DNA of 64,000 nucleotides, taken from Verrucomicrobiota bacterium. GTDB lineage: Bacteria; Verrucomicrobiota; Verrucomicrobiia; Opitutales; Opitutaceae. Below the pieces are notes generated by a model. The model saw nothing but the letters and a program-made list of their open reading frames with translations, was not told the DNA's origin and did not search any database. A program made the position numbers and the translations under genes. Position 1 is the first letter of the stretch, and each line of letters starts with the position of its first letter. The DNA lies in assembly GCA_014584295.1 (NCBI GenBank), contig JACTNC010000058.1, positions 148,669 to 212,668 on the forward strand, written 5' to 3'. Below are positions 2,832 to 37,765 of this stretch, in pieces.

Positions 2832-3143
2832 AGCTTTTAAGTTGAACCAAAAATCCAACCGCCGCCCGCAACCTGAGGCAAGCAGTCCTTCAAACGCCAA
2901 ATCCATCGAGGTCGTTCCCGGAAAACGCGCATCCGATGCCACAGCGGCTTTGCATTTGAATCGCGAATTCCAGTTCATCCCAGACTGAAAATGCGAATCG
3001 GGCCCCCTGGTTGGTCACTGATCATCAATTTTTTGCACTAGCCGGGTGCGCTCGAGCCTATCGATGCGCAACAAAGAATTCGCGCCTGACGGGCTTTGCT
3101 GCGTTGTTCTGAACTTCCTCTCTCCACTCCACGCCGCCACCCG

Positions 3144-5975
3144 ATGATCGGTCGCATCCAGAAGCACGCACGCGAACGCCTCAATTTCACAGGCGAGGTC
3201 CCTGCCGCCCAGCGGCTCGCCGCCTGCAAGACCTTCCTGCGTCTCGAAAGCGCGATGATCCGCATGCATCACGACGCCGGTGCCAACGGACTCGAAACCG
3301 CGCACGCGCGGGCCGCCATGGTCGACATCCTGCTCGGGCACCTGTTCGACTACGCGATGGGCACCTACGTGATGAAGCACGGCGAGGCGCCCTCCCCTGT
3401 CGCCCTGATCGCCCTCGGCGGATACGGGCGGAATGAGCTCAGTCCGCTGAGCGACATCGATGTCCTGTTCCTGTTTCCCTCGAAGGTAAAGGCCGGCACA
3501 ATCAAGCCGCTCCAGGAACACCTCAGCAATGAGATCCTCTACATCCTGTGGGACTGCGGCTTGAAAGTCGGCCACGCCACACGAACCGTCGATGAGACTT
3601 TTGCCGAGGCCCGCGCTGACATTCAGACAAAGACGGCGCTACTGGAGGCGCGCCTGGTCGCCGGCTCAGCGGCGCTCTTCGAGTCTTTCTCTTCGGCCTA
3701 CCGCGCTTTTTACACGGAGGAAAACCCACGTGGCTACATCGCCGCACGCCTCGCCGACCAAGTGGCGCGTCGGGCAAAATATGGTGACACCGTTTTCCTG
3801 CAGGAGCCCGATATCAAGAACGGTGTGGGCGGGCTGCGCGACTACCAAAACACGCTCTGGATGGCGCGGGTGAAGCTCGGCATCACGTCGCTCGACGAAC
3901 TCGCCACGCAAGCCTACCTGCGACCGAATGATGTCCGCGATTTTCAACGCGCGTACACGTTCCTGCATCGCGTCCGCAATGAACTGCATTTCCAGAGCAA
4001 GCGACCGACTGACGTACTGGCACTTGATGTCCAGCCGAAGATCGCACTCGGCCTCGGCTACACGAACCGCGACCTGCTTGGGCGGGTTGAACAGTTCATG
4101 CGCGACTACTACCGGTCAGCGCAGACGATCTATCGCATCTCCCGCCTGATCGAAAGCAGGCTCGCACTGACCCTGGAAACTCCGAACGGCGCTCTCATGT
4201 CCTTTCGCGAGGCGATCCGCGCCAAGCGATTCGAGAAAACCAAGCGCATCGACGGCTTCATTCTTCGCGGTGGCGAACTCGCGGCGGAATCCCCCGAGGT
4301 CTTCAAGGCCGATCCGGCACGCATCATCCGCGTGTTCCGCCACTGCCAGCAACTGAATGCCAAGCCCGATTTCGCGCTGCAGGGATTGATTCGCGACGCA
4401 CTTCCGCTGTTGACGCGCCATGTCCAGCAGTCACGCGACGCAAACATCTCGTTCCGCTCGATTCTCCAACAGTCCGGGGCCGTGTATCCCACCCTCTCGC
4501 TGATGCATGAGCTGGGTGTGCTCGGGCGCTTCATTCCCGAATTCGATGCGCTGACGTGTCTCGTCCAGCACGAGTTCTATCACCGCTACACCGCGGACAT
4601 CCACACGCTGCACGCGATCCGCGAACTCGATTTCATTTTTACGGATGCGGAGCCCGTAAGCCTCAAGTACCGGACCACCCTCCACGAAACTCCGGAGCCC
4701 ACGCTGCTTTATCTCATCCTGTTGCTTCACGACATCGGCAAGGCCCGAGGCATAAAGGGACACGCCGAAAGCGGTGTGGCCATCGCCGCGCCGCTGCTTG
4801 ATCGCATGGAAATCGACGCGACAAGCCGCGAGTTTGTGGTCTTCGTGATCAAGAATCACCTCGTGATGACGCGCTTCTGGCAAAAACGCGACGTCGATGA
4901 TCCGAGCACTGCAGCCGCGTTTGCGGAGGTCGTGGGCGACGCCGACCGGCTCCGTTACCTCTACGTCCACACGTTCTGCGATGCGCGCGGGACAGCGGCA
5001 GGACTCTGGAACGGCTACAAGGACACACTCCACACGGCGCTCTACCGCGCCACGCTTGAGCGACTGCTCCACGGCGAGGAGCTTGCCACGCGCAACTCGC
5101 AGCGACTCGAGGCCACCTTTCAGGAACTCGTCAAAAGAAACATCCCAGGGATCAGCCAAGACGAGATCTCCGCGCATTTTCACCTGCTGCCCGAGCGGTA
5201 TTTCATGCACACGGAGACAAGCAAGGTCGCGCTTCACATCCAGATGGTGAACCGCCTGCTTCATTCCATCGCCGACGTCGAATCCACCGGCACCCTCCGA
5301 CCGGTGATCGACTGGAAGGACGATCTCAATCGATCCTTCACGGTCGTCAATGTGGTGACCTGGGACCGTGCCGGGCTCTTCTACAAACTCGCGGGCGCAT
5401 TCAGTGTCGCCGGCCTTTCGATTCTTGGCGCGAAGGTCATTTCACGAAGCGACAACATTGCAATCGATACATTCTTCGTAGTGGAGCCCGGGCGCGGCGT
5501 TGTGCAGAACGCCGGCGCCCAGGAGATATTTGCCCAGACGGTCGAAGCGGCTCTTGTGAGGGACAAGGATCTCCTGCCCGACATCGAGGCGCAGGCGCGG
5601 AAGCTGGCGGCGACCACGCGTTATCTCTCCAGCGCCAAGAAGGGAAATGATGCAATGCAGAACTCGTTTCCCCCCATTGCTGAGGTGTACCACGAGGCAT
5701 CCATGCAGCGCACCATCGTGGAAATCCAGGCACGCGACGAGATCGGCCTCCTCTTCCGCCTCGGGAAAGCCATCAGCGACCACGGATTTGACATCACGTT
5801 TGCGCGCGTCGGCACGGAGCAGGGCGTGGCCATCGATACGTTCTACATCGAAAACGCCGATCACAGTCCGGCCACCGATCCCGTGCGGCTTGCTTCCCTG
5901 CAGGAAGCGCTTGCCCTGGTCATCGCGCCCCGCGTGGTGGAGACGAGCGCAACGCCCGCGCTTCAATCCCGGTAA
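3144..5975 (+). CDS. glnD: [protein-PII] uridylyltransferase / uridylyl-removing enzyme
   Basis: ORF 3096..5975 opens with TTG; the ATG at 3144 gives MIGRIQKH. Nucleotidyltransferase motif GGYGRNELSPLSDIDVLFLF, HD motif LLLHDIGK, and two ACT-like C-terminal repeats. This is the GlnD architecture. Confidence 0.9.
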   Translation: MIGRIQKHARERLNFTGEVPAAQRLAACKTFLRLESAMIRMHHDAGANGLETAHARAAMVDILLGHLFDYAMGTYVMKHGEAPSPVALIALGGYGRNELSPLSDIDVLFLFPSKVKAGTIKPLQEHLSNEILYILWDCGLKVGHATRTVDETFAEARADIQTKTALLEARLVAGSAALFESFSSAYRAFYTEENPRGYIAARLADQVARRAKYGDTVFLQEPDIKNGVGGLRDYQNTLWMARVKLGITSLDELATQAYLRPNDVRDFQRAYTFLHRVRNELHFQSKRPTDVLALDVQPKIALGLGYTNRDLLGRVEQFMRDYYRSAQTIYRISRLIESRLALTLETPNGALMSFREAIRAKRFEKTKRIDGFILRGGELAAESPEVFKADPARIIRVFRHCQQLNAKPDFALQGLIRDALPLLTRHVQQSRDANISFRSILQQSGAVYPTLSLMHELGVLGRFIPEFDALTCLVQHEFYHRYTADIHTLHAIRELDFIFTDAEPVSLKYRTTLHETPEPTLLYLILLLHDIGKARGIKGHAESGVAIAAPLLDRMEIDATSREFVVFVIKNHLVMTRFWQKRDVDDPSTAAAFAEVVGDADRLRYLYVHTFCDARGTAAGLWNGYKDTLHTALYRATLERLLHGEELATRNSQRLEATFQELVKRNIPGISQDEISAHFHLLPERYFMHTETSKVALHIQMVNRLLHSIADVESTGTLRPVIDWKDDLNRSFTVVNVVTWDRAGLFYKLAGAFSVAGLSILGAKVISRSDNIAIDTFFVVEPGRGVVQNAGAQEIFAQTVEAALVRDKDLLPDIEAQARKLAATTRYLSSAKKGNDAMQNSFPPIAEVYHEASMQRTIVEIQARDEIGLLFRLGKAISDHGFDITFARVGTEQGVAIDTFYIENADHSPATDPVRLASLQEALALVIAPRVVETSATPALQSR

Positions 5976-7408
5976 TTCAGCGCGGGTGCGCGATCGCCAA
6001 GCAGCGGCTCGTACCTGAAATCCTCGCCGCGCCGACGGATCAGCTCCGCCTTTGCCTCGGCAACGATCCTCGGATCGGAAAACAGATCCAGCGCCGTCAA
6101 TGCCAGCGCCTTTGACGCCATGAGGCGCCCCTTGACGCAAATCGTGGTGGCACCGCAGGCGGCAGCCTGCCAGCTATGCGCGGGGGTGCCGGGGACCCAT
6201 GTGGCCGTGCGCACGCCAACCGTCGGCACGGCATAACTCACATCACCCACATCGGTCGACCCGCCCCCCATCCCGTTGGGATTTATCCTAAGGGGCTGCA
6301 CGGTCCGGGCCAGTTCGACTGCCGCCGCGCGGCCGCCGATGAAGGTCTTGCCCAGTTCGGCAGCGAAGCGCTTCTCCGATTCGTCGTAGCTGAAACCGCC
6401 TATCCGCTCGAGATTTGCCTGTGCCACCTTCGCGAGCGCCTCGTTTGGCAGCAGATCATGCACGCCACCGGTGATCTCCCACTCCACACTCGTCCCTGTT
6501 CCCATTGCCGCACCCTTGGCAGCCTGGGTGACACGTTCGAACACCTCCCTGACGATGCGCCGGTCCTGATGGCGGACGTAGTAGTAGGACTCCGCGAAAG
6601 CCGGAACCACATTCGGCGCCTCGCCGCCACGTGTAATGACATAGTGAATACGCACATCCTGGGGCACGTGCTCGCGCATCATGTTGACCATGTAGTCCAT
6701 TGATTCCACCCCATCGAGCGCGGATCTGCCACGATCGGGAGCGGAGGAGGCGTGGGCTGCGACGCCCGTGAAACGAAACTTTGCAGAGATGTTCGCCTTG
6801 CTCGGACCGGTGATGGCGCTGTTGCCATCGGAGGGATGCCAGTGAAGCACCGCATCGACATCGTTGAAGAGGCCCGCACGCACCAGGTAAACCTTGCCGG
6901 ACCCACCCTCTTCCGCGGGGCAGCCGTAAACGCGCAGCGTTCCCTTCCGGCCGGTGGCCTTCAGCCATGCCGCAGTCGCTGCCGCCGCCTCGATCGATCC
7001 GGCACCGAAGGCGTGGTGACCGCAGGCGTGGGCTGCGGTCGAGCCGGGACGAGCCTTCTTCTCCGGCACACCTTCCTGGGAGATTCCGGGAAGAGCGTCG
7101 TATTCGGCGAGAATGCCGATCACCGGTTTGCCGGATCCGAAGGACGCCACAAACGCCGTCGGCATGCCCGCCACCCCCGCCTCCACCTTGAACCCGTCGG
7201 CCCTGAGTCGCTCCTGCAGCAGAGCCGAACTCCGCGTCTCCTTGAAGCCAACCTCCGCGAGATCCCAGATCTTGTTCATGATCTCGGTATAGGGCGCCTG
7301 GTCCCGATCAATGCGGGCGATAACCGCATCCTTGGAGGTCTGCGCCGACACCAGCAGCGCGGAGGCCAGATAGAAACCGGACAAGAGCAATCGACTACCC
7401 GTTCTCAT
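5963..7408 (-). CDS. secreted M20-family amidohydrolase/peptidase (AbgB-like)
   Basis: 481-aa ORF with ATG at 7406-7408. Signal-like N-terminus MRTGSRLLLSGFYLASALLVSAQ and an M20D-type motif AHACGHHAFG. Its 3' end overlaps the glnD 3' end convergently by 13 nt. Confidence 0.75.
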   Translation of the reverse strand: MRTGSRLLLSGFYLASALLVSAQTSKDAVIARIDRDQAPYTEIMNKIWDLAEVGFKETRSSALLQERLRADGFKVEAGVAGMPTAFVASFGSGKPVIGILAEYDALPGISQEGVPEKKARPGSTAAHACGHHAFGAGSIEAAAATAAWLKATGRKGTLRVYGCPAEEGGSGKVYLVRAGLFNDVDAVLHWHPSDGNSAITGPSKANISAKFRFTGVAAHASSAPDRGRSALDGVESMDYMVNMMREHVPQDVRIHYVITRGGEAPNVVPAFAESYYYVRHQDRRIVREVFERVTQAAKGAAMGTGTSVEWEITGGVHDLLPNEALAKVAQANLERIGGFSYDESEKRFAAELGKTFIGGRAAAVELARTVQPLRINPNGMGGGSTDVGDVSYAVPTVGVRTATWVPGTPAHSWQAAACGATTICVKGRLMASKALALTALDLFSDPRIVAEAKAELIRRRGEDFRYEPLLGDRAPALNYRD

Positions 7409-7517
7409 GATCGCCTATCGCCACAGAAAGCTCCGAAAATCTCAAGCATGCGTTCCACTGAAAGCGACTGGCCATACAGCATGTCCCCCCGATGCGATTC
7501 CGGCGCGGCAGTCGCCT

Positions 7518-8417
7518 TCAAGCCGGGCGCACGCGCCTCGATCCGCGGAGGCGGGCGCGCAGCCGCGAGATCCGCTTCCAGGCACCAAAGGCTAGGCGGT
7601 ATTTCCACTCCACCCAGCGTGAACCTTTGGGATTAAAATGCTTCAGGTAGACGTCGCGATTGGCGTCAAAGATGGCCTCGGACATGCGGTCAAAGTCCTT
7701 TCCCACGCTGAGCCCCTTCAGGTGCACAATCGAGTGACGCCCATCATAAACGATCCGATAACCTGCCTTGCGAACGCGGATACAGAGATCCAGGTCGTCG
7801 CCATACATGAAAAACGACTCATCGAACCCGCCGATCTTTTCGAGCACCTCGCGACGCCCCATCATGAACGCGCCATTGATCGCCGCCACGTCGTACGTGC
7901 CCTCCTTCGGAAGATAGGTCAGGTTGTAGCCCGCGAATAGCTTCCTGTCCGGAAACGCCGCCGCCAGTCCGGTAGCCCTGCAAAATCCATCCCACATCGT
8001 GGGAATCGACCGGCGACAAGCGAGGTCCATCGACCCATCCGCCAGTTCAAGACGCGGGGAAATGAGCCCGATATCCCGTTCGAGCCGGATACGCTCCACG
8101 CAGTGTTCCAAGGCTTGAGCGTTACAAACCGTGTCCGGATTCAAATATAGCAGACATTCGCCACGAACCCTGGAGGCGCCGAGATTGTTTGCCCGGCCAA
8201 AACCCAGATTCTCACCCGGATTAATGTAGGTCATGCTGGGATGCTCGCTTCGCATCCAGGCACCCGTCCCATCGGCGTCGAGAGAATTGTCGACCACCAC
8301 CACCTCGATCGCGCGATCATGCAGTGTCGACGGAATGGAACCGAGGCAGCCAGGAAGCTCATTGCGCGATTTATAAGCGACAATGACGATGCCCAGAATG
8401 GAAGACGTTTCCGCCAT
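7518..8417 (-). CDS. family-2 glycosyltransferase
   Basis: GT-A N-terminus ILGIVIVAYKSRNEL..VVVVDNSLD and a YGDDLDLC motif typical of GT2. The ORF-track start is GTG at 8423; an ATG lies at 8415-8417. Confidence 0.75.
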   Translation of the reverse strand: MAETSSILGIVIVAYKSRNELPGCLGSIPSTLHDRAIEVVVVDNSLDADGTGAWMRSEHPSMTYINPGENLGFGRANNLGASRVRGECLLYLNPDTVCNAQALEHCVERIRLERDIGLISPRLELADGSMDLACRRSIPTMWDGFCRATGLAAAFPDRKLFAGYNLTYLPKEGTYDVAAINGAFMMGRREVLEKIGGFDESFFMYGDDLDLCIRVRKAGYRIVYDGRHSIVHLKGLSVGKDFDRMSEAIFDANRDVYLKHFNPKGSRWVEWKYRLAFGAWKRISRLRARLRGSRRVRPA

Positions 8418-8476
8418 GCACACTCAGTCTTGTGACGTTCCCCCGCTCGCGCAACCCTTGGTGCGGGCGACAGGCT

Positions 8477-9592
8477 TCAGTTTGAGTTCAACAACTCCAG
8501 TATCCTCTCATACCTCTGTTCCCATGTGTTTGCCCGAGCCAGAGCAATCCGGGCAGCGCGGGCACTTTCGTTGTCCAAGCGGACTTGATTCTCAATGGCG
8601 GGAACCCAGTCCTCGGTGGTGCCGGGGAAAGCAATTACATCCTGGAATTCTGAAATCAATTCCGGAAGCCGCGCCGCCACCACCGGCCGACCTGTGGCCA
8701 GGCATTCGTAGGTCTTTGCTGGCATCACGGCTTCCGTGTAGCGATTGATCGCGTACGGGAGCAAAATGACATCTGCCCGGCTGACTTCGTGCCGCAGGTT
8801 GGCGTGCGGCACTTGGCCGACAAGCGTCACATTCGCGGGAAACACATGCGGCGTCTTGACTGGACCTACCAGGCGCAGGCGCCATCCCGGGCGCAGCCGG
8901 GCTATGGTTTCAATCAATTCAAAATCGAGATGTTGCCGGTGCAGGTGCCCGTAGTAGAGCAAGACCAGGTCTTCCAAACCATGAAGCGGTCGCATCGGCA
9001 CCAGAAAACGCTCGACCAGTGCCCCATGCGGCAACCGCACACAACGTTTGGCTTGTGATTGCTTCCGCTCCAGGAGCGTTCGACTCGGCACAAGCGTGAG
9101 ATCCGCCCGAAGGAGAATCTGCTGTTCGTCTTTCGGCAGAAATTTGGGGATCCCGCTGACCGCCAGCCAATCGTCAGTGCAGTCGTAAATCAATTTCTTA
9201 TGAGGCACCCGATCAATCAACTGGAGAGCCGTGCGAGCCGCAGAATAGTTGACGATCAAATCGACGCCCTCGCGCAAGCGCGCTTCATGCTGAAGCCATC
9301 GTTCCAATCGCAAGGCGTTCAATCGGCATAGGGAGGTGTAGGCAGCCGGCAGCACGGGGGGACGCACCACGCGCATGCCGCTGGGAGCTGGATCACCTGG
9401 CACAGGCCCACTGCGGAAACGACGCAGCTTGTCCCATACGCACGCCAAGTCACGCAATCGGGGTCGGCGGGTACCGGGGATCTCGCAGAAAACGACATCG
9501 TAGTCCCGTGCAAACAGCGATGCCAGCGTCTGATGCCGTTGCCAGACAAAATCCCAGCGGATGTTGGATATGAAGAGTGCGGTGGGACGCAT
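8477..9592 (-). CDS. glycosyltransferase (GT-B/GT1-GT4-like)
   Basis: 371-aa ORF with ATG at 9590-9592. The C-terminal half resembles a GT-B nucleotide-sugar binding region (..ECLATGRPVVAARLPEL..). Family assigned by eye only. Confidence 0.5.
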   Translation of the reverse strand: MRPTALFISNIRWDFVWQRHQTLASLFARDYDVVFCEIPGTRRPRLRDLACVWDKLRRFRSGPVPGDPAPSGMRVVRPPVLPAAYTSLCRLNALRLERWLQHEARLREGVDLIVNYSAARTALQLIDRVPHKKLIYDCTDDWLAVSGIPKFLPKDEQQILLRADLTLVPSRTLLERKQSQAKRCVRLPHGALVERFLVPMRPLHGLEDLVLLYYGHLHRQHLDFELIETIARLRPGWRLRLVGPVKTPHVFPANVTLVGQVPHANLRHEVSRADVILLPYAINRYTEAVMPAKTYECLATGRPVVAARLPELISEFQDVIAFPGTTEDWVPAIENQVRLDNESARAARIALARANTWEQRYERILELLNSN

Positions 9593-30925: not shown

Positions 30926-31092
30926 GGAGGGGCCCGCTTCGTCGTGACCGGATTGGTATCGAAATGTGGCTGGAGCTTCCAGCTCCCGATCTTGATCCGA
31001 GCAGACCAATCGATCTCAAATCGGATTTCGATCCACGGGACCTGGAAGGTCCCGCTACCAGCCAAACCGGTCACGACGATGCGTGACCCTCC
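30926..31092. repeat. 167-bp MITE/REPIN-like element C
   Basis: Terminal units at 30926-30949 (GGAGGGGCCCGCTTCGTCGTGACC) and 31069-31092. The interior has hairpins GGAGCTTCCAGCTCC and GGGACCTGGAAGGTCCC and aligns with element B. Confidence 0.85.
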
Positions 31093-31130: not shown

Positions 31131-33344
31131 CTACGCTGCGCGAAGTGCAGGTGCTGCTGCCTCAAGCCGAGCGACGAGGTGCGGAGGAATCGTCACGATC
31201 GCCGTGTTCTCAATCTCCGTGCTCGGCGGCAGTTCCTGAAATGCCAGAACAACAAGTCTCGGGAATGACGGTTCAAAGAAGCGTTTCAACGCAAGTCTGA
31301 GCTCGGTGCTCACAACAAGAACCGGAGTCAGGTTCTGCTGCGTGAACTCCGCCACACGTGCGTTCACCTCGGTCAGCAGATGTCGGCCAAGCATCGGATC
31401 CAGGGCAAGGCCCACTTCACTCGGCGTGCGATGGATGCGTGCAATCAGCACCTGCTCGAGTCGCGGATCAAACGTCGCTGCCTTGAGCAAGCCCGGGCGG
31501 TATTCCAGCTCAGGCACAAAATAGAGCCCAAGGCGGCGGCGTGCGAGTTCGCTGAGATCGTCCGGGTTCTTCGTGACGCTCGCGAAATCGCCGATGCACT
31601 CGAGGATGAGCGGCAGATTGAGAATCGAGAGATTTTCCCGCAGTAGGTTCTGCAGCACGCGCTGGATGATTCCGAGATTGACGAGGTCCGGCAGCAGCTC
31701 CGAAACCAGCGCGGGGTGCGATTCCTTGAGATGATCGATCAGCGTCTGCACGTCCTGCCGGCCTAGGAGGAGATGGGCGACACTCTTCAGCGTTTCCGAC
31801 ACATGCGTGATCATCACCGACGACGGATCCACGACGGTATAGCCGTTGAGCTCTGCCGTCTTTCGCTCGGTCTCGTCGATCCACACGGCCTCAAGGCCGA
31901 ACACCGGCTCGCGCGTGGGCAGGCCGCGAAGCGCAACCGTGCTGTTGGAAACATTCATGGCCATGCTGCGGCCGGGTTGAACCTGCCCCTTGGCCACCGT
32001 CTTCCCACGCAGGAGGAAGCGGTACTCATTTGCCTCGAGTTCGAGGTTGTCGCGCACCGATACGGGCGGAACAAGTATGCCCTTTTCGCGCGCGAGTGTC
32101 TTGCGCACGCCGGTTACGCGCGACAGGAGATCCCCTCCCTGCTTGGCATCGGCCAGCGGAAGCAAGCCGTATCCAATCTCGATCGCAAACACATCGAGGT
32201 CCACAAGCTTACGAAGATCCTCGGAAATCGCGCCTTTGCCGGAGGACGAAGCGCCTTCCTTTCCACCGGCGGCCGACTTGCCGGACCCAGCGGCTTTGGC
32301 CGTCACCGCGGCAATCTCCGCCGAGGCCTCGTCGACACGCTGCTGCTGCTTGAGAATGCGGGCAATGTATCCTCCGACAAGCGCCAGGCTCAGGAACGGC
32401 AGTGCGGGCATGCCAGGCATCAGGCCAAACACTCCCAGCATCGCCGCCGAAATTCCGATGGCGCGGGGATACCGGACCAGTTGTCCCCCGATCTGCTGTC
32501 CGAGGTTTCCAGTGCCTGCCGCACGCGTTACCAAAATGCCCGCGCCAACCGAAACGATGAGCGCCGGAATCTGCGAAACCAGGCCGTCACCGATCGACAA
32601 CAGCGTGAATTTCGTCGCGGCCTCCGAAAGCGTCATGTCCATCTGCAGCACGCCAATCGCGAAACCGCCGATGACGTTGACGAGCGTGATAAGGATGCCA
32701 GCAATTGCGTCGCCTCGAACAAACTTGGAGGCACCATCCATCGCACCGTAGAAATCAGCTTCCTTCTGGACCTTTTGGCGTCGGGCGGTGGCGGTGGCCT
32801 CGTCAATGATGCCCGCGTTGAGTTCGGCATCGATCGCCATTTGCTTGCCGGGCAGGGCGTCCAGCGTAAAACGCGCGCTCACCTCCGCTATGCGGCCAGC
32901 ACCCTTCGTGATGACCACGAAATTGATGACGACGAGAATGAGGAAAACCACAAAACCTACGATGTAGTTGCCCTGGATGACAAAGTGACCAAACGACTCG
33001 ATCACATGGCCCGCCTCGCCCTTGGTGAGAATCAGCCGCGTCGAGCAGATGTTGAGCGCGAGGCGGAAGAGCGTTAGCGCAAGCAGCAGGGTGGGAAATC
33101 CGGCAAATTCGGGCGGATCCTTCACGTAGATCACGATCAGCAGCATCAGCAGCGAAACCCCCATCTGGAGCGCGAGCATGACATCCAGCGCCAGTGCCGG
33201 CAGCGGCACCAGGAGCATGAGCACCGTCATGAAAAGCGCTCCCGTAAAGATCAGGTCGGCGCGCTTGAGCAGATCGACACGCGCCCCCTTCGCGGGCAGT
33301 GACTGAGGAACGACAGAGGGATCGGTTGCAGCAGCGGAAGCCAT
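31131..33344 (-). CDS. flhA: flagellar type III export gate protein FlhA
   Basis: 737 aa. FHIPEP-type region FVRGDAIAGILITLVNVIGGF and a typical cytoplasmic domain. Confidence 0.95.
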   Translation of the reverse strand: MASAAATDPSVVPQSLPAKGARVDLLKRADLIFTGALFMTVLMLLVPLPALALDVMLALQMGVSLLMLLIVIYVKDPPEFAGFPTLLLALTLFRLALNICSTRLILTKGEAGHVIESFGHFVIQGNYIVGFVVFLILVVINFVVITKGAGRIAEVSARFTLDALPGKQMAIDAELNAGIIDEATATARRQKVQKEADFYGAMDGASKFVRGDAIAGILITLVNVIGGFAIGVLQMDMTLSEAATKFTLLSIGDGLVSQIPALIVSVGAGILVTRAAGTGNLGQQIGGQLVRYPRAIGISAAMLGVFGLMPGMPALPFLSLALVGGYIARILKQQQRVDEASAEIAAVTAKAAGSGKSAAGGKEGASSSGKGAISEDLRKLVDLDVFAIEIGYGLLPLADAKQGGDLLSRVTGVRKTLAREKGILVPPVSVRDNLELEANEYRFLLRGKTVAKGQVQPGRSMAMNVSNSTVALRGLPTREPVFGLEAVWIDETERKTAELNGYTVVDPSSVMITHVSETLKSVAHLLLGRQDVQTLIDHLKESHPALVSELLPDLVNLGIIQRVLQNLLRENLSILNLPLILECIGDFASVTKNPDDLSELARRRLGLYFVPELEYRPGLLKAATFDPRLEQVLIARIHRTPSEVGLALDPMLGRHLLTEVNARVAEFTQQNLTPVLVVSTELRLALKRFFEPSFPRLVVLAFQELPPSTEIENTAIVTIPPHLVARLEAAAPALRAA

Positions 33345-33380: not shown

Positions 33381-34505
33381 TCAGGCGACGCCTCGCAGCG
33401 CCTGACTTTCAGCAGCGGTTCGGCGCATCTTCAGTTCGTGGAAGTACAGGCGGTGGGTCTTGTACACGAACGCAAGGATGCCTGCGACCGCCTGATAGAG
33501 CTCGTTGGGAATCGGCTGCCCCACGATCCCCATGCTGAAGAGCATACGCGCCACCGGCCGGTTTTCGACCATGGGCACCCCGTGTTCGGCCGCGAGAGCC
33601 TTGATGCGCATCGCAAACCGGTTGTCGCCCTTCGCGAGCACAATGGGAGCATTGTCCTTGCCGCGCTCATACTTCAGCGCGACCGCATAGTGGGTGGGAT
33701 TCGTGACCACGACGTCCGCCGTCGCGACGGCGCTGAGCATCTGTTTCTGCATCAGGCGTCGTCCCATGCGACGCATGGCACTCTTGGTGTTTGCGTCGCC
33801 TTCCGACTGCTTGTGCTCATCCTTCACCTCTTGCCGCGTCATGCGCATCTCCTTGAAGGTCTTGAATCGCTCGTATGAATAGCTGAGTGCAGCGATGATA
33901 CCTAGGGCAACGAGCAGTTTGCCGAAGAACTCAACGGTGGCTCGATGTAAGAAGCCCCCGAGGTAGGCGCTTTCGACGGGAGCGCTGAACAACGGATCCG
34001 CGAGCAGGTTCTTAGCTGCCATCCAGAGGACGAAGCCAATGCCCAGCATCTTCAGAAAATCGATCAGGCCATGCACCGCCGTGGTTTTTGAAAACAGGCG
34101 CTGAAGCCCCTGCACCACATCAAGCCGCTCCATCTTGAAGCCAAGAGCCTTGGGCGAAATCCGAAAACCGGTCTGGAAACCACCGGCGAGCAAGGTGGCC
34201 GTTGTCGTTGCCAGCAACACGGGCAGGAGCACGCGTGCAATGACGAGCCCGACTTCGTCCATCTGCCCGGGGAGCGTCGCGATTTCCAAACGCGCCGCGC
34301 CAAGGTCCCGCCAGAACAAGGTCGCGAGTGCTGCGACCTCATGCATGCCACCGGAAAGGCTCATCGAAAAAATCCCCAATGCCGCGGCCAGCATCGCAAC
34401 GACCTGAAGCTCGGGCGTCTTGGCGAACTGGCCGCGATCCATCGCGTCCGCTTTCCGCTTGTCTGTCGGCAGCTCGGTTTTTGAGTCGTCGTCGTGTTCA
34501 GCCAT
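33381..34505 (-). CDS. flhB: flagellar export switch protein FlhB
   Basis: N-terminus MAEHDDDSKTELPTDKRKADAMDRGQFAK and an NPTH autocleavage motif in VVVTNPTHYAVAL. Confidence 0.95.
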   Translation of the reverse strand: MAEHDDDSKTELPTDKRKADAMDRGQFAKTPELQVVAMLAAALGIFSMSLSGGMHEVAALATLFWRDLGAARLEIATLPGQMDEVGLVIARVLLPVLLATTTATLLAGGFQTGFRISPKALGFKMERLDVVQGLQRLFSKTTAVHGLIDFLKMLGIGFVLWMAAKNLLADPLFSAPVESAYLGGFLHRATVEFFGKLLVALGIIAALSYSYERFKTFKEMRMTRQEVKDEHKQSEGDANTKSAMRRMGRRLMQKQMLSAVATADVVVTNPTHYAVALKYERGKDNAPIVLAKGDNRFAMRIKALAAEHGVPMVENRPVARMLFSMGIVGQPIPNELYQAVAGILAFVYKTHRLYFHELKMRRTAAESQALRGVA

Positions 34506-34522
34506 GGCCTCCCGTCGGGGAA

Positions 34523-34538
34523 TGCAAGGACAGTGCCA
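34523..34538 (-). promoter_or_regulatory. sigma54-type promoter upstream of flhB
   Basis: The minus strand reads TGGCACTGTCCTTGCA (perfect consensus). The -12 C (34524) is 19 nt from the flhB ATG (34505). Confidence 0.7.
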
Positions 34539-34611
34539 CGATGCACGGGTGTTATGTGTCTATTATGCTATCAACATCTTACGAGATTCTCATCGGATAC
34601 AAAACGGCACC

Positions 34612-34626
34612 CGGCAAAATCTGCAG
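34612..34626. promoter_or_regulatory. palindromic upstream element, flhB
   Basis: CGGCAAAATCTGCAG (one arm mismatch). Its centre is 82 bp upstream of the -24 GG of the flhB promoter. Confidence 0.45.
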
Positions 34627-34658
34627 TATCCGCTATCGGGCGTTCAGGAAATGCAGCC

Positions 34659-34752
34659 GGAGCTTCCAGCTCCCGCTCTCGTCCCCGTCAGACCGGCCGA
34701 TTTCAAACCGAATTTCGATCGTCGCACAGCCAATTGACATTGTTCCCAACCT
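34659..34752. repeat. partial copy of the B/C-type element interior
   Basis: Starts with GGAGCTTCCAGCTCCCG, identical to element C, followed by a diverged ..CCGATTTCAAACCGAATTTCGATCG.. Lacks a left terminal unit. Confidence 0.5.
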
Positions 34753-35009
34753 GGACGGGCAAGCATCGTCGTGCCCGGGATCGCTCCGCGCATTCCAACG
34801 CCAGCAAATTCGCCAATTCATCGGAATCGTGTTCTCTTGTAACAATGCCCCGGAGTAAAATCCTGGACACATCCCAGACCAAACCGGGCACGACGAAGCG
34901 TGCCCCTCCAAATTCACAGGAAGATCAATCTTCTCCTCAGCAAGTGCGCAGATTCCCAATCCATCTGATCCGCAGATTTCGCGGACGGACGCAGATTCTG
35001 GCATCGATC
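34753..35009. repeat. left about 257-bp direct repeat (second-type REPIN of 157 bp plus about 100-bp tail) flanking the TA cassette
   Basis: Units at 34753-34776 (degenerate GGACGGGCAAGCATCGTCGTGCCC) and 34886-34909. The tail AAATTCACAGGAAGATCAATCTTCTCCTCAGCA..GGCATCGATC is nearly identical to 36297-36395. Confidence 0.8.
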
Positions 35010-35024
35010 AGAGTCAAACTGTGG

Positions 35025-35191
35025 TCATGTCTTACGCTTTAACCGAGTCAGCAAATCCTCGTCTGCATCGCTCAGCAATCGGCGCCTCACCACTTCGGCT
35101 TGCTTGCTGACACGTGTCCGCGAGGTCATGTCCAACGCTTTGGCAATGCCCCCAGTTGCTCATAGGAAACTGTGCTTGCTCTCTTCATCAT
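35025..35191 (-). pseudogene. frameshifted small helix-turn-helix ORF (about 55 aa if repaired)
   Basis: The minus strand reads ATGATGAAGAGAGCAAGCACAGTTTCCTATGAGCAACTGGGGG.. (MMKRASTVSYEQLG). After a G5 run (C5 on the plus strand, 35149-35153) it continues in another frame as IAKALDMTSRTRVSKQAEVVRRRLLSDADEDLLTRLKRKT*. The 167-nt span needs +1 nt to be in frame. Confidence 0.3.
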
Positions 35192-35242
35192 CAAGTCAAT
35201 CGATAAGACCTGACGCTACGGATGGCCCTCCAATCCCGCGCT

Positions 35243-35668
35243 TTATTCGATCCTATCCAAAACCAGCCGAAAACGGCGCGAACCATGGCGCCGGTAAGTC
35301 CGGAAGCCACGCTCATCCAGCGTCAGAATTTTATCCAGGCCGGTTTCCTCAGCAAGCAACACCAATGTGGCATCGGCAAAGTCCATCGGCGTGTCTGTAT
35401 ATTTACCCATCAGTCGGGCGGCCGCGCGAAGTTGCTCCGGGGCAAAGCAATCCCGAATGACAATCTGGGCGTCATCGAGAAACTCCACCAATACCTCTGC
35501 GCCCCTCGCCTGCCCGCCGATGAAATGCATGGCTTCGGTCACCACAGCTCCCGTGGTCAGCAAGGTTCCGGAAAATGCGGACAAGACCCTGGCACAACGT
35601 TCATGCTGAGGGTCGCCCCGGTTAAGGGCCGCCACCAAGGGGCCGGTATCGAGCAACCAAGAAGTCAC
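35243..35668 (-). CDS. vapC: PIN-domain toxin (VapC-like)
   Basis: PIN acidic residues in WLLDTGPL, VVTEAMHF, MDFADATL and ILTLDERGF. GTG at 35666-35668 overlaps the antitoxin TGA (35665-35667) as GTGA. An alternative ATG at 35704 would overlap by 40 nt. Confidence 0.75.
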   Translation of the reverse strand: MTSWLLDTGPLVAALNRGDPQHERCARVLSAFSGTLLTTGAVVTEAMHFIGGQARGAEVLVEFLDDAQIVIRDCFAPEQLRAAARLMGKYTDTPMDFADATLVLLAEETGLDKILTLDERGFRTYRRHGSRRFRLVLDRIE

Positions 35669-35925
35669 GACCGGGTGTTCATCCGCAGCAGGTGCTCCCG
35701 CCATGGATCCTTGCCTTGGGGCACCGGTGAAAAATCAAGGCGACCCAAGTGGCGTCCGGCCCGCTCGCCCACTGTACCCGGTCGCAGCAGCTGCCCGGCA
35801 ATCAACTCACGCACCAGTTCGGATTCGGTCCGTCCCGAGGCGGCTGCACGCGCACGCAACGCCTTCCGATGGGCTGCCGGCAAACGAATGGTGAGTGTTT
35901 CGGACATGTCGGAAACGTTATCCAT
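35665..35925 (-). CDS. vapB: ribbon-helix-helix (CopG/RHH) antitoxin (VapB-like)
   Basis: RHH pattern ETLTIRLPAAHRKALRARAAASGRTESELVRELI. Candidate ATG starts at 35925 or 35907; the track ORF extends to 36051. Confidence 0.65.
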   Translation of the reverse strand: MDNVSDMSETLTIRLPAAHRKALRARAAASGRTESELVRELIAGQLLRPGTVGERAGRHLGRLDFSPVPQGKDPWREHLLRMNTRS

Positions 35926-36134
35926 CGTAAGACACTCCGCAAGACATAATGGTTCTCGCAACAGCTCCCGGGGTATTTGCCCAAGACATGCCCTGCCAAG
36001 AGAAGTCCGATCGATCTCTCCTTCGCGTCTTCTCGGCTTCGCGTGAGTCATTCACGCTCATGCTTGGCGATGGCAAGATGGGTTCACATGAAGTCACGAA
36101 GACACGAAGGGCTGATGAAATACCGGACAGCTGA

Positions 36135-36395
36135 GGAGGGGCACGCTTCGTCGTGACCGGGATCGCTCAGCGTACTTCAACGCCAGCAAATTCGCCCATT
36201 CATCGACCTCGTGTTCCCTTGTGACAATGCCCCTGCCCTGAATAGGATCCTGGCCGCATCCCAAACCGATCTGGGCACGACGACGCGTGCCCCTCCAAAT
36301 TCACAGGAAGATCAATCTTCTCCTCAGCAGGTGCGCAGATTCCCAATCCATCTGATCCGCAGATTTCGGGACGGACGCAGATTCCGGCATCGATC
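36135..36395. repeat. right about 261-bp direct repeat (second-type REPIN plus tail)
   Basis: Units at 36135-36158 and 36273-36296. By eye, the tail differs from the left copy at only a few positions. The interior GGGATCGCTCAGCG..CAACGCCAGCAAATTCGCC.. aligns with the left copy. Confidence 0.8.
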
Positions 36396-36544
36396 CGCCT
36401 GGAGCCAATCTGCGTAAATCGGAGCCATCTGCGGATTTTATCTTCCGAGATGCTTTGCATTCTTCTATCTGGGCACAACGAAAGGGATCCGTACTGGGCT
36501 CAAGAAACATCGTAAGGCTTACAAGTCGGCGTTGGTCGAAATTG

Positions 36545-36605
36545 GGAGCTGGAAGCTCCCGCTACGCTCTGACGCCAAGCCGGGCACGACGAAGCGTGCC
36601 CCTCC
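36545..36605. repeat. partial element (inner hairpin plus one terminal unit)
   Basis: GGAGCTGGAAGCTCCC (36545-36560), then GGGCACGACGAAGCGTGCCCCTCC (36582-36605). Confidence 0.7.
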
Positions 36606-36723
36606 AAGGTTTGTTGTGTTGTTTTGGGCAAAACGATGCGCGATCCACCAGGGTACCAAGGCACCTCGTACTTCGCCAGAGCTTCCACGACGAAGCGCTT
36701 TTCGCCGTGGTGGACGATTCTGG

Positions 36724-37473
36724 TCAATGTGGCAGGATTTCCAGGATCCTGAATGGCATGGCATCGAACTCGGTCCAGAGGTATCGCGCAATCAATCCTC
36801 CTGCTCCGGCCAGCAGGCTGAATCCGGCAAGCGTACGGAGCGGGTAGCTGAGGACAAAGACACCCATCTTCGGCACCGCGCGGCCGAGAACGGAGAACGC
36901 GAGGTTGACGAGGAAATTCAACGCGATGAAGGGCGCCGCGATGCGAAATCCGAGGCTGATGACATGGCCCGTTTGCACGATGAGCGAAAGCGTTGTGCCG
37001 TCGCTGAACCCTGGGGCCCCTGCAGGCGCGAGATCGAAACTTCGCATGAACGCAGTGAGCACCGTCAGGTGCGCGCCGAAGAGGAAGAACAGCACGCCCG
37101 CAAACATCGAAAGAAACGCCGGCAGCGGCTCCTGCGCCGGCTGGGGCACATCGAATCCGGGCGCCGCCATGAGTCCGATTTCATTCGCAATCAGCCGGCC
37201 CGCCAGTTCCACCGCGGCGAACGCCAGTCGCCCAATGAAACCAAATACGAGCCCGAGGATCACCTCCCCCCCGGCGGCGAAGATCAGTCCACCAATGCCG
37301 GACGGGAACGGGCTTCCGCGAACAATCCCATAAAGAATCGATGCCAGGCACGCCGCCATTGCCACCCGCAGCATGACGGGAAGCGGGCGACCCGCCAGGG
37401 TTGGAAACAGCAGGACGACCCCGAGGCTTCGGAGGAAAACCATCAACCAGGCAAATACCAGGTCGATCGGCAT
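36724..37473 (-). CDS. fliR: flagellar export apparatus protein FliR
   Basis: Polytopic membrane protein in the fliPQR position. ATG at 37471-37473 gives MPIDLVFAWLMVFLRSLGVVLLFP (the track start is TTG at 37515). Confidence 0.9.
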   Translation of the reverse strand: MPIDLVFAWLMVFLRSLGVVLLFPTLAGRPLPVMLRVAMAACLASILYGIVRGSPFPSGIGGLIFAAGGEVILGLVFGFIGRLAFAAVELAGRLIANEIGLMAAPGFDVPQPAQEPLPAFLSMFAGVLFFLFGAHLTVLTAFMRSFDLAPAGAPGFSDGTTLSLIVQTGHVISLGFRIAAPFIALNFLVNLAFSVLGRAVPKMGVFVLSYPLRTLAGFSLLAGAGGLIARYLWTEFDAMPFRILEILPH

Positions 37474-37495
37474 GGACGAACTCCTCCGGTTGTTG

Positions 37496-37765
37496 TCAGC
37501 TTCCGAGCGTGGCAATCCGCGTGATCATCGTTGTCGCGAATTCCGAGACCGACCGAAGCAGCCAGGGCGCAAGCAGGATCAGCAGACCGGCCAGCGCGAG
37601 GAGCTTCGGCGCGAAGGTCAGCGTCTGCTCCTGAATGCTTGTCACCGACTGAAACAGGCTCATCGCAAATCCGATGATCAGCATCACTCCAAGAAACGGG
37701 GCGACAGTGTAGATCGCGAACGTAATCACGTTCTTGAAGATATCGATGGCAAGTTCCGGGTTCAC
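37496..37765 (-). CDS. fliQ: flagellar export apparatus protein FliQ
   Basis: A GTG at 37763-37765 gives an 89-aa product (canonical FliQ length) starting VNPELAIDIFKNV..; it also has the ..SIQEQTLTFAPKLLA.. pattern. There is no internal ATG, and the longer track ORF overlaps fliP. Confidence 0.85.
   Translation of the reverse strand: MNPELAIDIFKNVITFAIYTVAPFLGVMLIIGFAMSLFQSVTSIQEQTLTFAPKLLALAGLLILLAPWLLRSVSEFATTMITRIATLGS

Follow-up and report, generated by a model that had tools for sequence, protein, structure and literature searches.

How did a toxin-antitoxin gene pair come to lie between fliR and flhB, two flagellar genes that are normally adjacent, and do the two direct repeats that flank it record its arrival? 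The locus is part of a window of 64,000 nucleotides (the whole stretch of DNA analysed here, from contig JACTNC010000058.1 of assembly GCA_014584295.1) of an Opitutaceae-like bacterium of the Verrucomicrobiota, whose genome we call G000 (4.07-Mb assembly, 63 contigs, 59% G+C); the window corresponds to C5:148669-212668, on the 224-kb contig C5. In G000 the flhB-fliR gap measures about 2.2 kb (2,218-2,221 bp) and holds two genes, for a ribbon-helix-helix (RHH) antitoxin and a PIN-domain toxin. A sequence-only reading of this DNA had taken the direct repeats as the mark or the cause of an insertion, or as the ends of a cassette that can be excised as a circle. We think it likely that the pair is an ordinary VapBC-like module at a repeat-colonised operon-boundary hot spot, and that the direct repeats are members of a dispersed family and not the ends of a cassette. 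Repeat-mediated insertion or circle excision is mostly not supported as the origin of the locus. Taken alone, the pair and its flanking repeats are ordinary, and the main value of the locus is that direct repeats framing a gene pair are shown here not to be its insertion vehicle.

The same pair in related genomes

The separation of fliR from flhB is indeed unusual, as the earlier reading had held. The two genes are 142-182 bp apart in six relatives of the genus (G011, G012, G003, G002, G013 and G007), 315 bp apart in G004 and 367 bp in G015, the distance reaching 989 bp in G009, 1,116 bp in G008 and 5,830 bp in G010. All flagellar genes here are on the minus strand, with fliQ, fliP and fliO upstream of fliR. 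The layout seen in G000 is not an assembly artefact, since 24 unitigs of other public sequencing runs encode an identical PIN protein and the two of them that were read both show the order B'-E-RHH-PIN-D-C (modules as in Table 1) at about 99.5% identity to G000. One difference from an otherwise ~99.5% identical unitig is an 8-nt indel among the TTCGTG-type short repeats of module E (window ~36095-36110).

The nearest relative, G008 (FlhB protein 99% identical), carries the same pair at the same site; its PIN gene has a premature in-frame TGA at codon 39. Upstream of the pair, about 38 nt lead from its promoter region to the fliR stop, modules E, B', C', F and G are missing, and homology between G000 and G008 ends exactly at 36017/36018. 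Downstream, the PIN stop is followed by about 45 nt of a divergent-type C (the part nearest the hairpin) and then by a single repetitive extragenic palindromic (REP) hairpin. Module D, the full tail and the second left hairpin are absent, the left REP doublet (REPIN) having collapsed to a singlet. Sequence has thus been lost in G008 itself, both by this collapse and by loss of the REP on the fliR side.

In G009 the fliR-flhB gap contains repeats only, and the pair is found on another contig (C16), between an epimerase-like gene and a secreted-protein gene, with a PIN protein 93% identical to that of G000. This copy shares only 35230-35958 with G000 (729 bp, 86.7% identity) and has neither direct repeat; a REP hairpin lies ~90 nt upstream of it. 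The unit shared with G000 is therefore bounded by 35230 and 35958 in G009, and by 35230 and 36017 in G008. Counted from these limits, the direct repeats are another 220 bp and 118 bp away, and neither of the two genomes has them. Because the shared unit ends short of them, the direct repeats are not the limits of the cassette. The comparison of fliR-flhB junctions proposed by the sequence-only reading gave a divided answer: insertion into a short spacer is supported, the link to flanking repeats is not. That reading had itself named, as the finding that would speak against it, close relatives with the same genes at this position and no flanking repeats, and G008 is largely such a case. The repeats can hardly be the mark or the cause of an insertion that is present at the same site without the right repeat (G008) and elsewhere with neither (G009).

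Two members of a dispersed mosaic family

What, then, are the direct repeats? Their description as a REPIN-like element followed by a nearly identical tail of about 100 bp was confirmed by alignment. From end to end the two copies are 87% identical, the REPIN part being about 82% identical and the tail 97% (3 differences in 98 nt), and their longest perfect runs are 45 and 38 nt. The partial copies reported outside them are also present, at 34659-34677 / 36545-36563 and at 36575-36607. The REP unit has the form GGGCACG-N6-CGTGCCC, each REPIN consists of an inverted pair of such hairpins, and both REPIN parts fold into a long hairpin closed by the two inverted units (z -4.3 and -3.8). REPINs were defined in Pseudomonas as REP doublets that form hairpins, together with the REP-associated tyrosine transposases (RAYTs) (Bertels and Rainey 2011, PMC3116915; PMC5581495).

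The REP hairpin occurs 180 times in the G000 genome (at most 3 mismatches) and 12 times in the window, and 43 occurrences form inverted pairs with a modal spacing of 129 nt. By BLAST against the genome, the only single-copy stretches of the gap are 35230-36010, which contains the pair, the flhB promoter region and about 100 nt beside fliR. The doublet B has about 20 long copies in the genome, and module E adjoins B at C17, C20 and C63. A canonical order E-B-C-F recurs at C63:10014-10453 (75% identity over all 434 nt), C28:158488-158839 (83%) and C17:17983-18364, and is partly present on C20; besides the direct repeats there are at least four full composite copies. A complete E-B-C-F mosaic has the right repeat as its core; the left repeat is a B-C piece to which neither E nor F is attached. 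Moreover, copies on C28, C20 and C43 are at least as close to each REPIN part as the two parts are to each other. It is the tail alone, whose remaining genome copies are all at most 84% identical, that marks the direct repeats as mutual nearest relatives. The family presumably spread by transposition or recombination.

Its distribution among the relatives follows the size of the gap. E-B-C-F matches number 51 in G000, 49 in G008, 29 in G010 and 6 in G009, against 1 in G011 and none in G012 or G003; the family is thus abundant only in G000, G008 and G010, with few copies in G009, and these are exactly the genomes with an enlarged gap. Judged by eye and with no Pfam scan, the surroundings of the REP clusters on C47, C33, C27, C55 and C63 are mostly genes of polysaccharide-synthesis-like, restriction-like or other ordinary kinds, and on these five contigs no special link to toxin-antitoxin genes was seen. 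Of the 180 hairpins, 28 lie within 500 nt of a contig end, and the small contigs C11, C47, C33, C55 and C45 carry 5-12 per 10 kb; the assembly appears to break in large part because of this repeat family.

Table 1. Features of the flhA-fliR region of G000 (window coordinates; a dot marks features given without a strand)
Feature	Position	Strand	Basis or remarks
flhA	31131-33344	-	flagellar gene
flhB, flagellar export gate/switch protein	33381-34505	-	Pfam Bac_export_2, E 9e-101
sigma54 -24/-12 promoter of flhB, TGGCACTGTCCTTGCA (TGGCAC-N5-TTGCA)	34523-34538	-	pattern scan
Putative enhancer-binding site (upstream activating sequence, UAS) of the flhB promoter, box TGCAGATTTTGCCGG	34611-34625	-	conservation; function inferred
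Module A, low-copy repeat with second hairpin type GGAGCTTCCAGCTCC	34646-34745	.	3 genome copies; inverted partner 36534-36563
Module B, left REPIN-like doublet	34753-34911	.	REP hairpins 34757-34776, 34886-34905
Module C, left tail	34912-35009	.	97% identical to 36299-36395; about 10 genome copies
Module D, relic of internally deleted Y1_Tnp (IS200-like) + helix-turn-helix (HTH) gene	35010-35228	-	3-4 copies
PIN-domain toxin (VapC-like)	35243-35668 from GTG; 35243-35704 from in-frame ATG	-	PF01850, E 2e-12
RHH-type antitoxin (VapB-like), 80 aa	35665-35907	-	RHH_1, 20.1 bits vs cut-off 20.5
Direct repeat TGTCTTGCG-N4-TGTCTTACG, likely operator/promoter region	35926-35946	-	conservation; function inferred
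Module E, dispersed repeat with CACGAAG-type short repeats	36018-36134	.	7-8 copies; usually attached to REPIN
Right direct repeat, REPIN B' + tail C' (left direct repeat: 34753-35009, modules B and C)	36135-36395	.	REP hairpins 36139-36158, 36273-36292
Module F, inverted partner of tail	36396-36451	.	C-F together form a hairpin; about 10 copies
Module G, second hairpin type + single REP hairpin (36582-36601)	36526-36610	.	near fliR stop
fliR	36724-37515	-	Pfam Bac_export_1, E 6e-43

These data bear on the proposal that the insertion left the direct repeats as its footprint, through Campbell-type integration of a circle or through duplication upon insertion, and that the cassette can leave again as a circle. 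The geometry is suitable: two repeats in the same orientation, 1.38 kb apart and sharing a 133-nt tract of 91-97% identity that includes the two long perfect runs, would allow RecA-type recombination, and neither tail has a closer relative in the genome than the other tail. However, the pair sits at the same site in G008 without the right repeat and without a full left one, and the G009 copy has neither; the REPIN parts, at 82%, are no more like each other than either is like copies on other contigs; modules D and E stand between the repeats and the pair; and the high-identity tail is younger than the pair's residence (see below). Furthermore, the 24 independent unitigs all fell into a single arrangement, which in the two that were read has the order of the integrated form. 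We consider this explanation quite improbable. Nor do the repeats suit as insertion boundaries: they belong to a family of 180 hairpins, D (left) and E (right) intervene, and the pair was resident before their tails reached 97% identity. By homologous recombination over the perfect runs the repeats could in principle delete the pair, and such a potential is a generic property of nearby direct repeats. One scan of metagenome contigs with a 23-mer specific to the left repeat gave no match of any kind, and hence no positive control either.

Module D, immediately downstream of the toxin gene, brings another candidate vehicle into view. The segment 35025-35191 was considered as a frameshifted HTH/excisionase gene and rejected, as it represents the two ends of an internally deleted Y1_Tnp + HTH gene. 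Indeed, a gene for a 335-aa Y1_Tnp (PF01797) protein is found at C41:146624-147631, and D matches its two ends, 35191-35218 aligning with C41:146601-146628 and 35012-35134 with C41:147522-147644. From a paralogue of this gene, D retains the final ~45 codons together with a 28-nt match to the leader at the 5' end (C-termini compared: ...ALDMTSRTRVSKQAEVVRRRLLSDADEDLLTRLKRKT and ...VLDMGSATFVSKQAGLARRRLLGDAVEEMLTKLKRET), so that it is best described as an internally deleted copy retaining both ends. The same deletion form recurs at C55:1345-1477 and C28:190508-190638; present in at least three places, it resembles a miniature non-autonomous element.

Could such a Y1 (HUH) transposase of the IS200/IS605-RAYT kind have moved the pair as single-stranded DNA between two REP hairpins? 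The genome has five PF01797 matches, a relic of such a gene directly follows the toxin gene, and in G000 REP hairpins lie on both sides of the pair. Yet none of these five is convincingly flanked by the REP studied here: 500 nt upstream of the best RAYT candidate, on C41, the hairpin is degenerate, and the intact one is separated from this candidate by another gene. In addition, the unit common to the three genomes comes without hairpins, and D is absent from G008. Passenger transposition is in our view very improbable. Elsewhere in the genome, at C62:125740-126645, a 146-aa IS200-like Y1 transposase gene (82 bits) has a 110-bp direct repeat on either side (84% identity), of a family distinct from the REP studied here.

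The imperfect inverted repeats of ~130-160 bp that flank a promoter-carrying toxin-antitoxin cassette also recall chromosomal integron arrays, in which case the REPINs would act as attC sites of a cluster lacking its integrase. This is extremely improbable. No tyrosine recombinase gene (PF00589) was found on the 224-kb contig, each arm forms a REP hairpin, palindromic in its own right, a comparison by eye shows no agreement of the arm ends with the attC core sites RYYYAAC/GTTRRRY, and the copies are scattered singly or in pairs through the intergenic DNA of ordinary gene clusters on many contigs.

Age of the pair and of the repeats

Which came first at this site, the pair or the near-identical tails? 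Between G000 and G008, nucleotide identity is 92.5% for flhA, 92.4% for flhB and 93.7% for fliR, and 93.3% for the PIN gene, 94.3% for the RHH gene and 93.3% for the region upstream of the pair. Such similar values place the pair at the site before, or not long after, the G000/G008 split. Upstream of flhB, an intergenic stretch has no more than 79-84% identity between G000 and G008, and the tails, at 97%, are therefore much younger than the pair's residence. From these identities the tails are younger than the G000/G008 split as well, and their likeness fits recent copying or gene conversion in the G000 lineage and not the scar of the original insertion. The orthologous C fragment of G008 is of a sequence type unlike the left C of G000.

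Several points weigh against the reading that we favour. The assignment of the antitoxin to the RHH family falls just under the Pfam threshold. In the pair, synonymous changes that separate G000 from G008 are about half as frequent (19 in 235 codons) as in flhA, flhB, fliR and fliP together (321 in 1678; Fisher p 1e-5), so that plain vertical descent along with the flanks does not fully account for the history of the pair. The right repeat block may possibly be ancestral and have been lost in G008, a genome that has itself undergone deletions. Finally, ancient repeats homogenised by gene conversion would also yield tails with 97% identity.

Non-synonymous changes show the opposite tendency, with 22 in the 235 codons of the pair and 31 in the 1678 codons of the flagellar genes, a difference of about five times. 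Together, these counts suggest relaxed constraint on the pair and a somewhat younger common ancestry than that of its flanks. Transfer between lineages is a possible cause, and the G009 copy, 86.7% identical where flhB is 80%, points the same way. Sliding-window identity between G000 and G008 revealed no clear recombination tract around the pair; the most similar window of fliR is its last 99 nt (97/99).

A younger ancestry of the pair would be expected if cassettes were exchanged, the REPs and REPINs at the edges of the gap serving as portable homology arms through which DNA of a related strain replaces the cargo by homologous recombination. The lower synonymous divergence of the pair and the closeness of the G009 copy, which suggests transfer within the genus, agree with this, as does the REP hairpin upstream of that copy. 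Moreover, G000 and G010 have edges in common and unrelated cargo between them (VapBC in the former; HipA, Phd/ParE and YCII in the latter). Both genomes carry the orthologous left half of REPIN B beside the flhB upstream region and a REP singlet near the fliR stop, and the REP anchors at both gap edges therefore pre-date the G000/G008/G010 split. At the G000 locus that corresponds to the site of the G009 copy, next to an epimerase-like gene (C18:72672-73792), two inverted truncated REPIN left halves surround a different cargo, a segment of ~950 bp encoding a small secreted protein, and form another repeat-bordered variable slot. Nevertheless, the sliding-window comparison gave no clear tract, no REP lies beside fliR in G008, the sample comprises four genomes, and independent insertions and deletions explain the differences in cargo equally well. 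We regard cassette exchange as conceivable though unlikely.

The REP content of the flagellar region differs at another place as well. Downstream of flhA, the REP pair of G000 (window 30930-31088) is represented in G008 by one degenerate hairpin, the second being missing, and this difference indicates that REP turnover is fast. A hairpin of the second type, GGACCTTCCAGGTCC, lying between these REPs is conserved in G008.

Under the explanation that we prefer, an ordinary pair at a repeat-colonised boundary, the pair would have lodged in the spacer of ~47 nt between the fliR stop and the box upstream of flhB, in or before the common ancestor of G000 and G008. This operon boundary would be a permissive hot spot in one sub-clade of the genus, repeatedly colonised by REP/REPIN-type mosaic repeats and by other toxin-antitoxin cargo. 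The right repeat would belong to a complete E-B-C-F mosaic, and the left one would be a REPIN that had been at the site for longer and that recently received its tail from the right one by copying or gene conversion. At the level of function, the RHH antitoxin probably represses its own promoter and the PIN protein would be a ribonuclease acting as the toxin.

The pair, its landing site and their known counterparts

The gene identities of the pair agree with what had been read from the sequence, an RHH antitoxin and a PIN toxin on the flagellar strand. To the Pfam matches of Table 1 we add that the PIN protein scores 26.9 bits against TIGR00028 (VapC subfamily), below the cut-off, is 50-61% identical to other Verrucomicrobiota homologues, and has as its nearest solved structure VapC26 of Mycobacterium tuberculosis (PDB 5x3t, E 3e-10), with which the four conserved acidic residues of the active site align: D (LLDTG), E (VTEAM), D (FADAT) and D (LTLDE). 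Further RHH matches of the antitoxin, FitA-like and NikA-like, are weak and below their cut-offs. The GTGA at 35668-35665, in which the RHH stop overlaps the PIN GTG, is kept in G008 and G009, as is the antitoxin ATG. The repeat TGTCTTGCG-N4-TGTCTTACG, 20-40 nt upstream of this ATG, is also kept in G000, G008 and G009:C16 despite diverging flanks, and is probably the operator of the pair. Read-through from fliR would cross 810 nt with three REP hairpins before reaching the pair, and beyond the toxin gene a single terminator-like site was scored, at the REP hairpin 34905-34886. Neither protein was matched by any defence-system model of PADLOC, and the Rfam search gave no RNA family in 34300-36900. 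The pair is most likely a self-contained VapBC-like addiction or stress module, with presumed toxin activity and autoregulation.

Why would this boundary accept insertions? The sigma54 pattern has 4 sites in the window where 0.36 are expected, one of them ~20 nt upstream of the flhB ATG, and alignment with relatives identifies the conserved box TGCAGATTTTGCCGG about 100 nt upstream of its -24 element. Both elements are kept 5' of flhB in G009, G011, G012, G013, G015 and G017, short-gap genomes included, and rpoN was found in the G000 genome. The sequence-only reading had left it open whether flhB retained or acquired its own sigma54 promoter and UAS; since relatives with a short gap have both, they are ancestral, and it is retention that stands. 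On this evidence flhB ancestrally starts its own sigma54 unit. Insertions have come to lie between the upstream box and the fliR stop, in a spacer of ~47 nt where they can land without effect on either operon's function, a neutral site.

The slot is a hot spot at which cargo turns over, and its contents differ among genomes: VapBC in G000 and G008, HipA with Phd/ParE in G010, and repeats only in G009. The cargo of G010 (C3:16000-26000, locus 3136-8965) comprises a 466-aa HipA_C protein, a Phd/YefM-ParE pair, a YCII protein and a 124-aa open reading frame of no assigned family. The fliR gene of this genome (C3:24965-25750) contains one in-frame TAG, which may reflect a pseudogene or a sequencing error. 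One flagellar operon boundary thus holds differing toxin-antitoxin cargo in sister genomes, always beside REP-type repeats. A broader idea is that the REP/REPIN mosaics found at operon boundaries of this Opitutaceae-like sub-clade serve as portable homology arms, or as substrates of Y1 transposases, by which small toxin-antitoxin cassettes are exchanged in one and the same slot. We hold this to be rather improbable; if true, such modules would have a repeat-based means of movement that does without an integrase. The ways in which chromosomal toxin-antitoxin modules travel without an obvious mobile-element signature are still poorly understood.

Both components of the locus, a VapBC-type module and REPIN/BIME-like repeats (BIME, bacterial interspersed mosaic element), are of known kinds, and what is new is this member of them. 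The pair resembles VapBC26 of M. tuberculosis in having a small RHH-like gene upstream of, and overlapping, the PIN gene, and in the four acidic residues. It differs in being only distantly related to it, below the TIGR00028 cut-off, and in its position at a flagellar operon boundary.

The BIMEs of enterobacteria are mosaics of REP units in alternating orientation and of a few conserved linker motifs; they lie between operons, in combinations that vary from site to site. The repeats of G000 share with them the mosaic build, the accumulation at operon boundaries and the variation between sites. However, the sequences are unrelated, and the modules described here are longer (about 100 nt) and include the relic of a transposase-like gene.

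The likeness to REPINs extends to the palindromic REP of ~20 nt in 180 copies, often paired in inverted orientation at a distance of ~129 nt, each pair folding into one long hairpin, to the intergenic position of the copies and to their inheritance as a family of one clade. In contrast to REPINs, the doublets are joined here to the extra modules E, C and F, no single-copy RAYT flanked by these REPs was identified, and the host belongs to the Verrucomicrobiota and is not a proteobacterium. A REPIN-like mosaic family is thereby documented in a phylum where such elements have been little described.

As a whole, the locus recalls chromosomal toxin-antitoxin hot spots and genomic islets, as a single intergenic site holds VapBC in G000 and G008 and HipA with Phd/ParE in G010. 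It differs from them in that it has no integrase, tRNA gene or classical island marker, its borders being formed by REP-type repeats.

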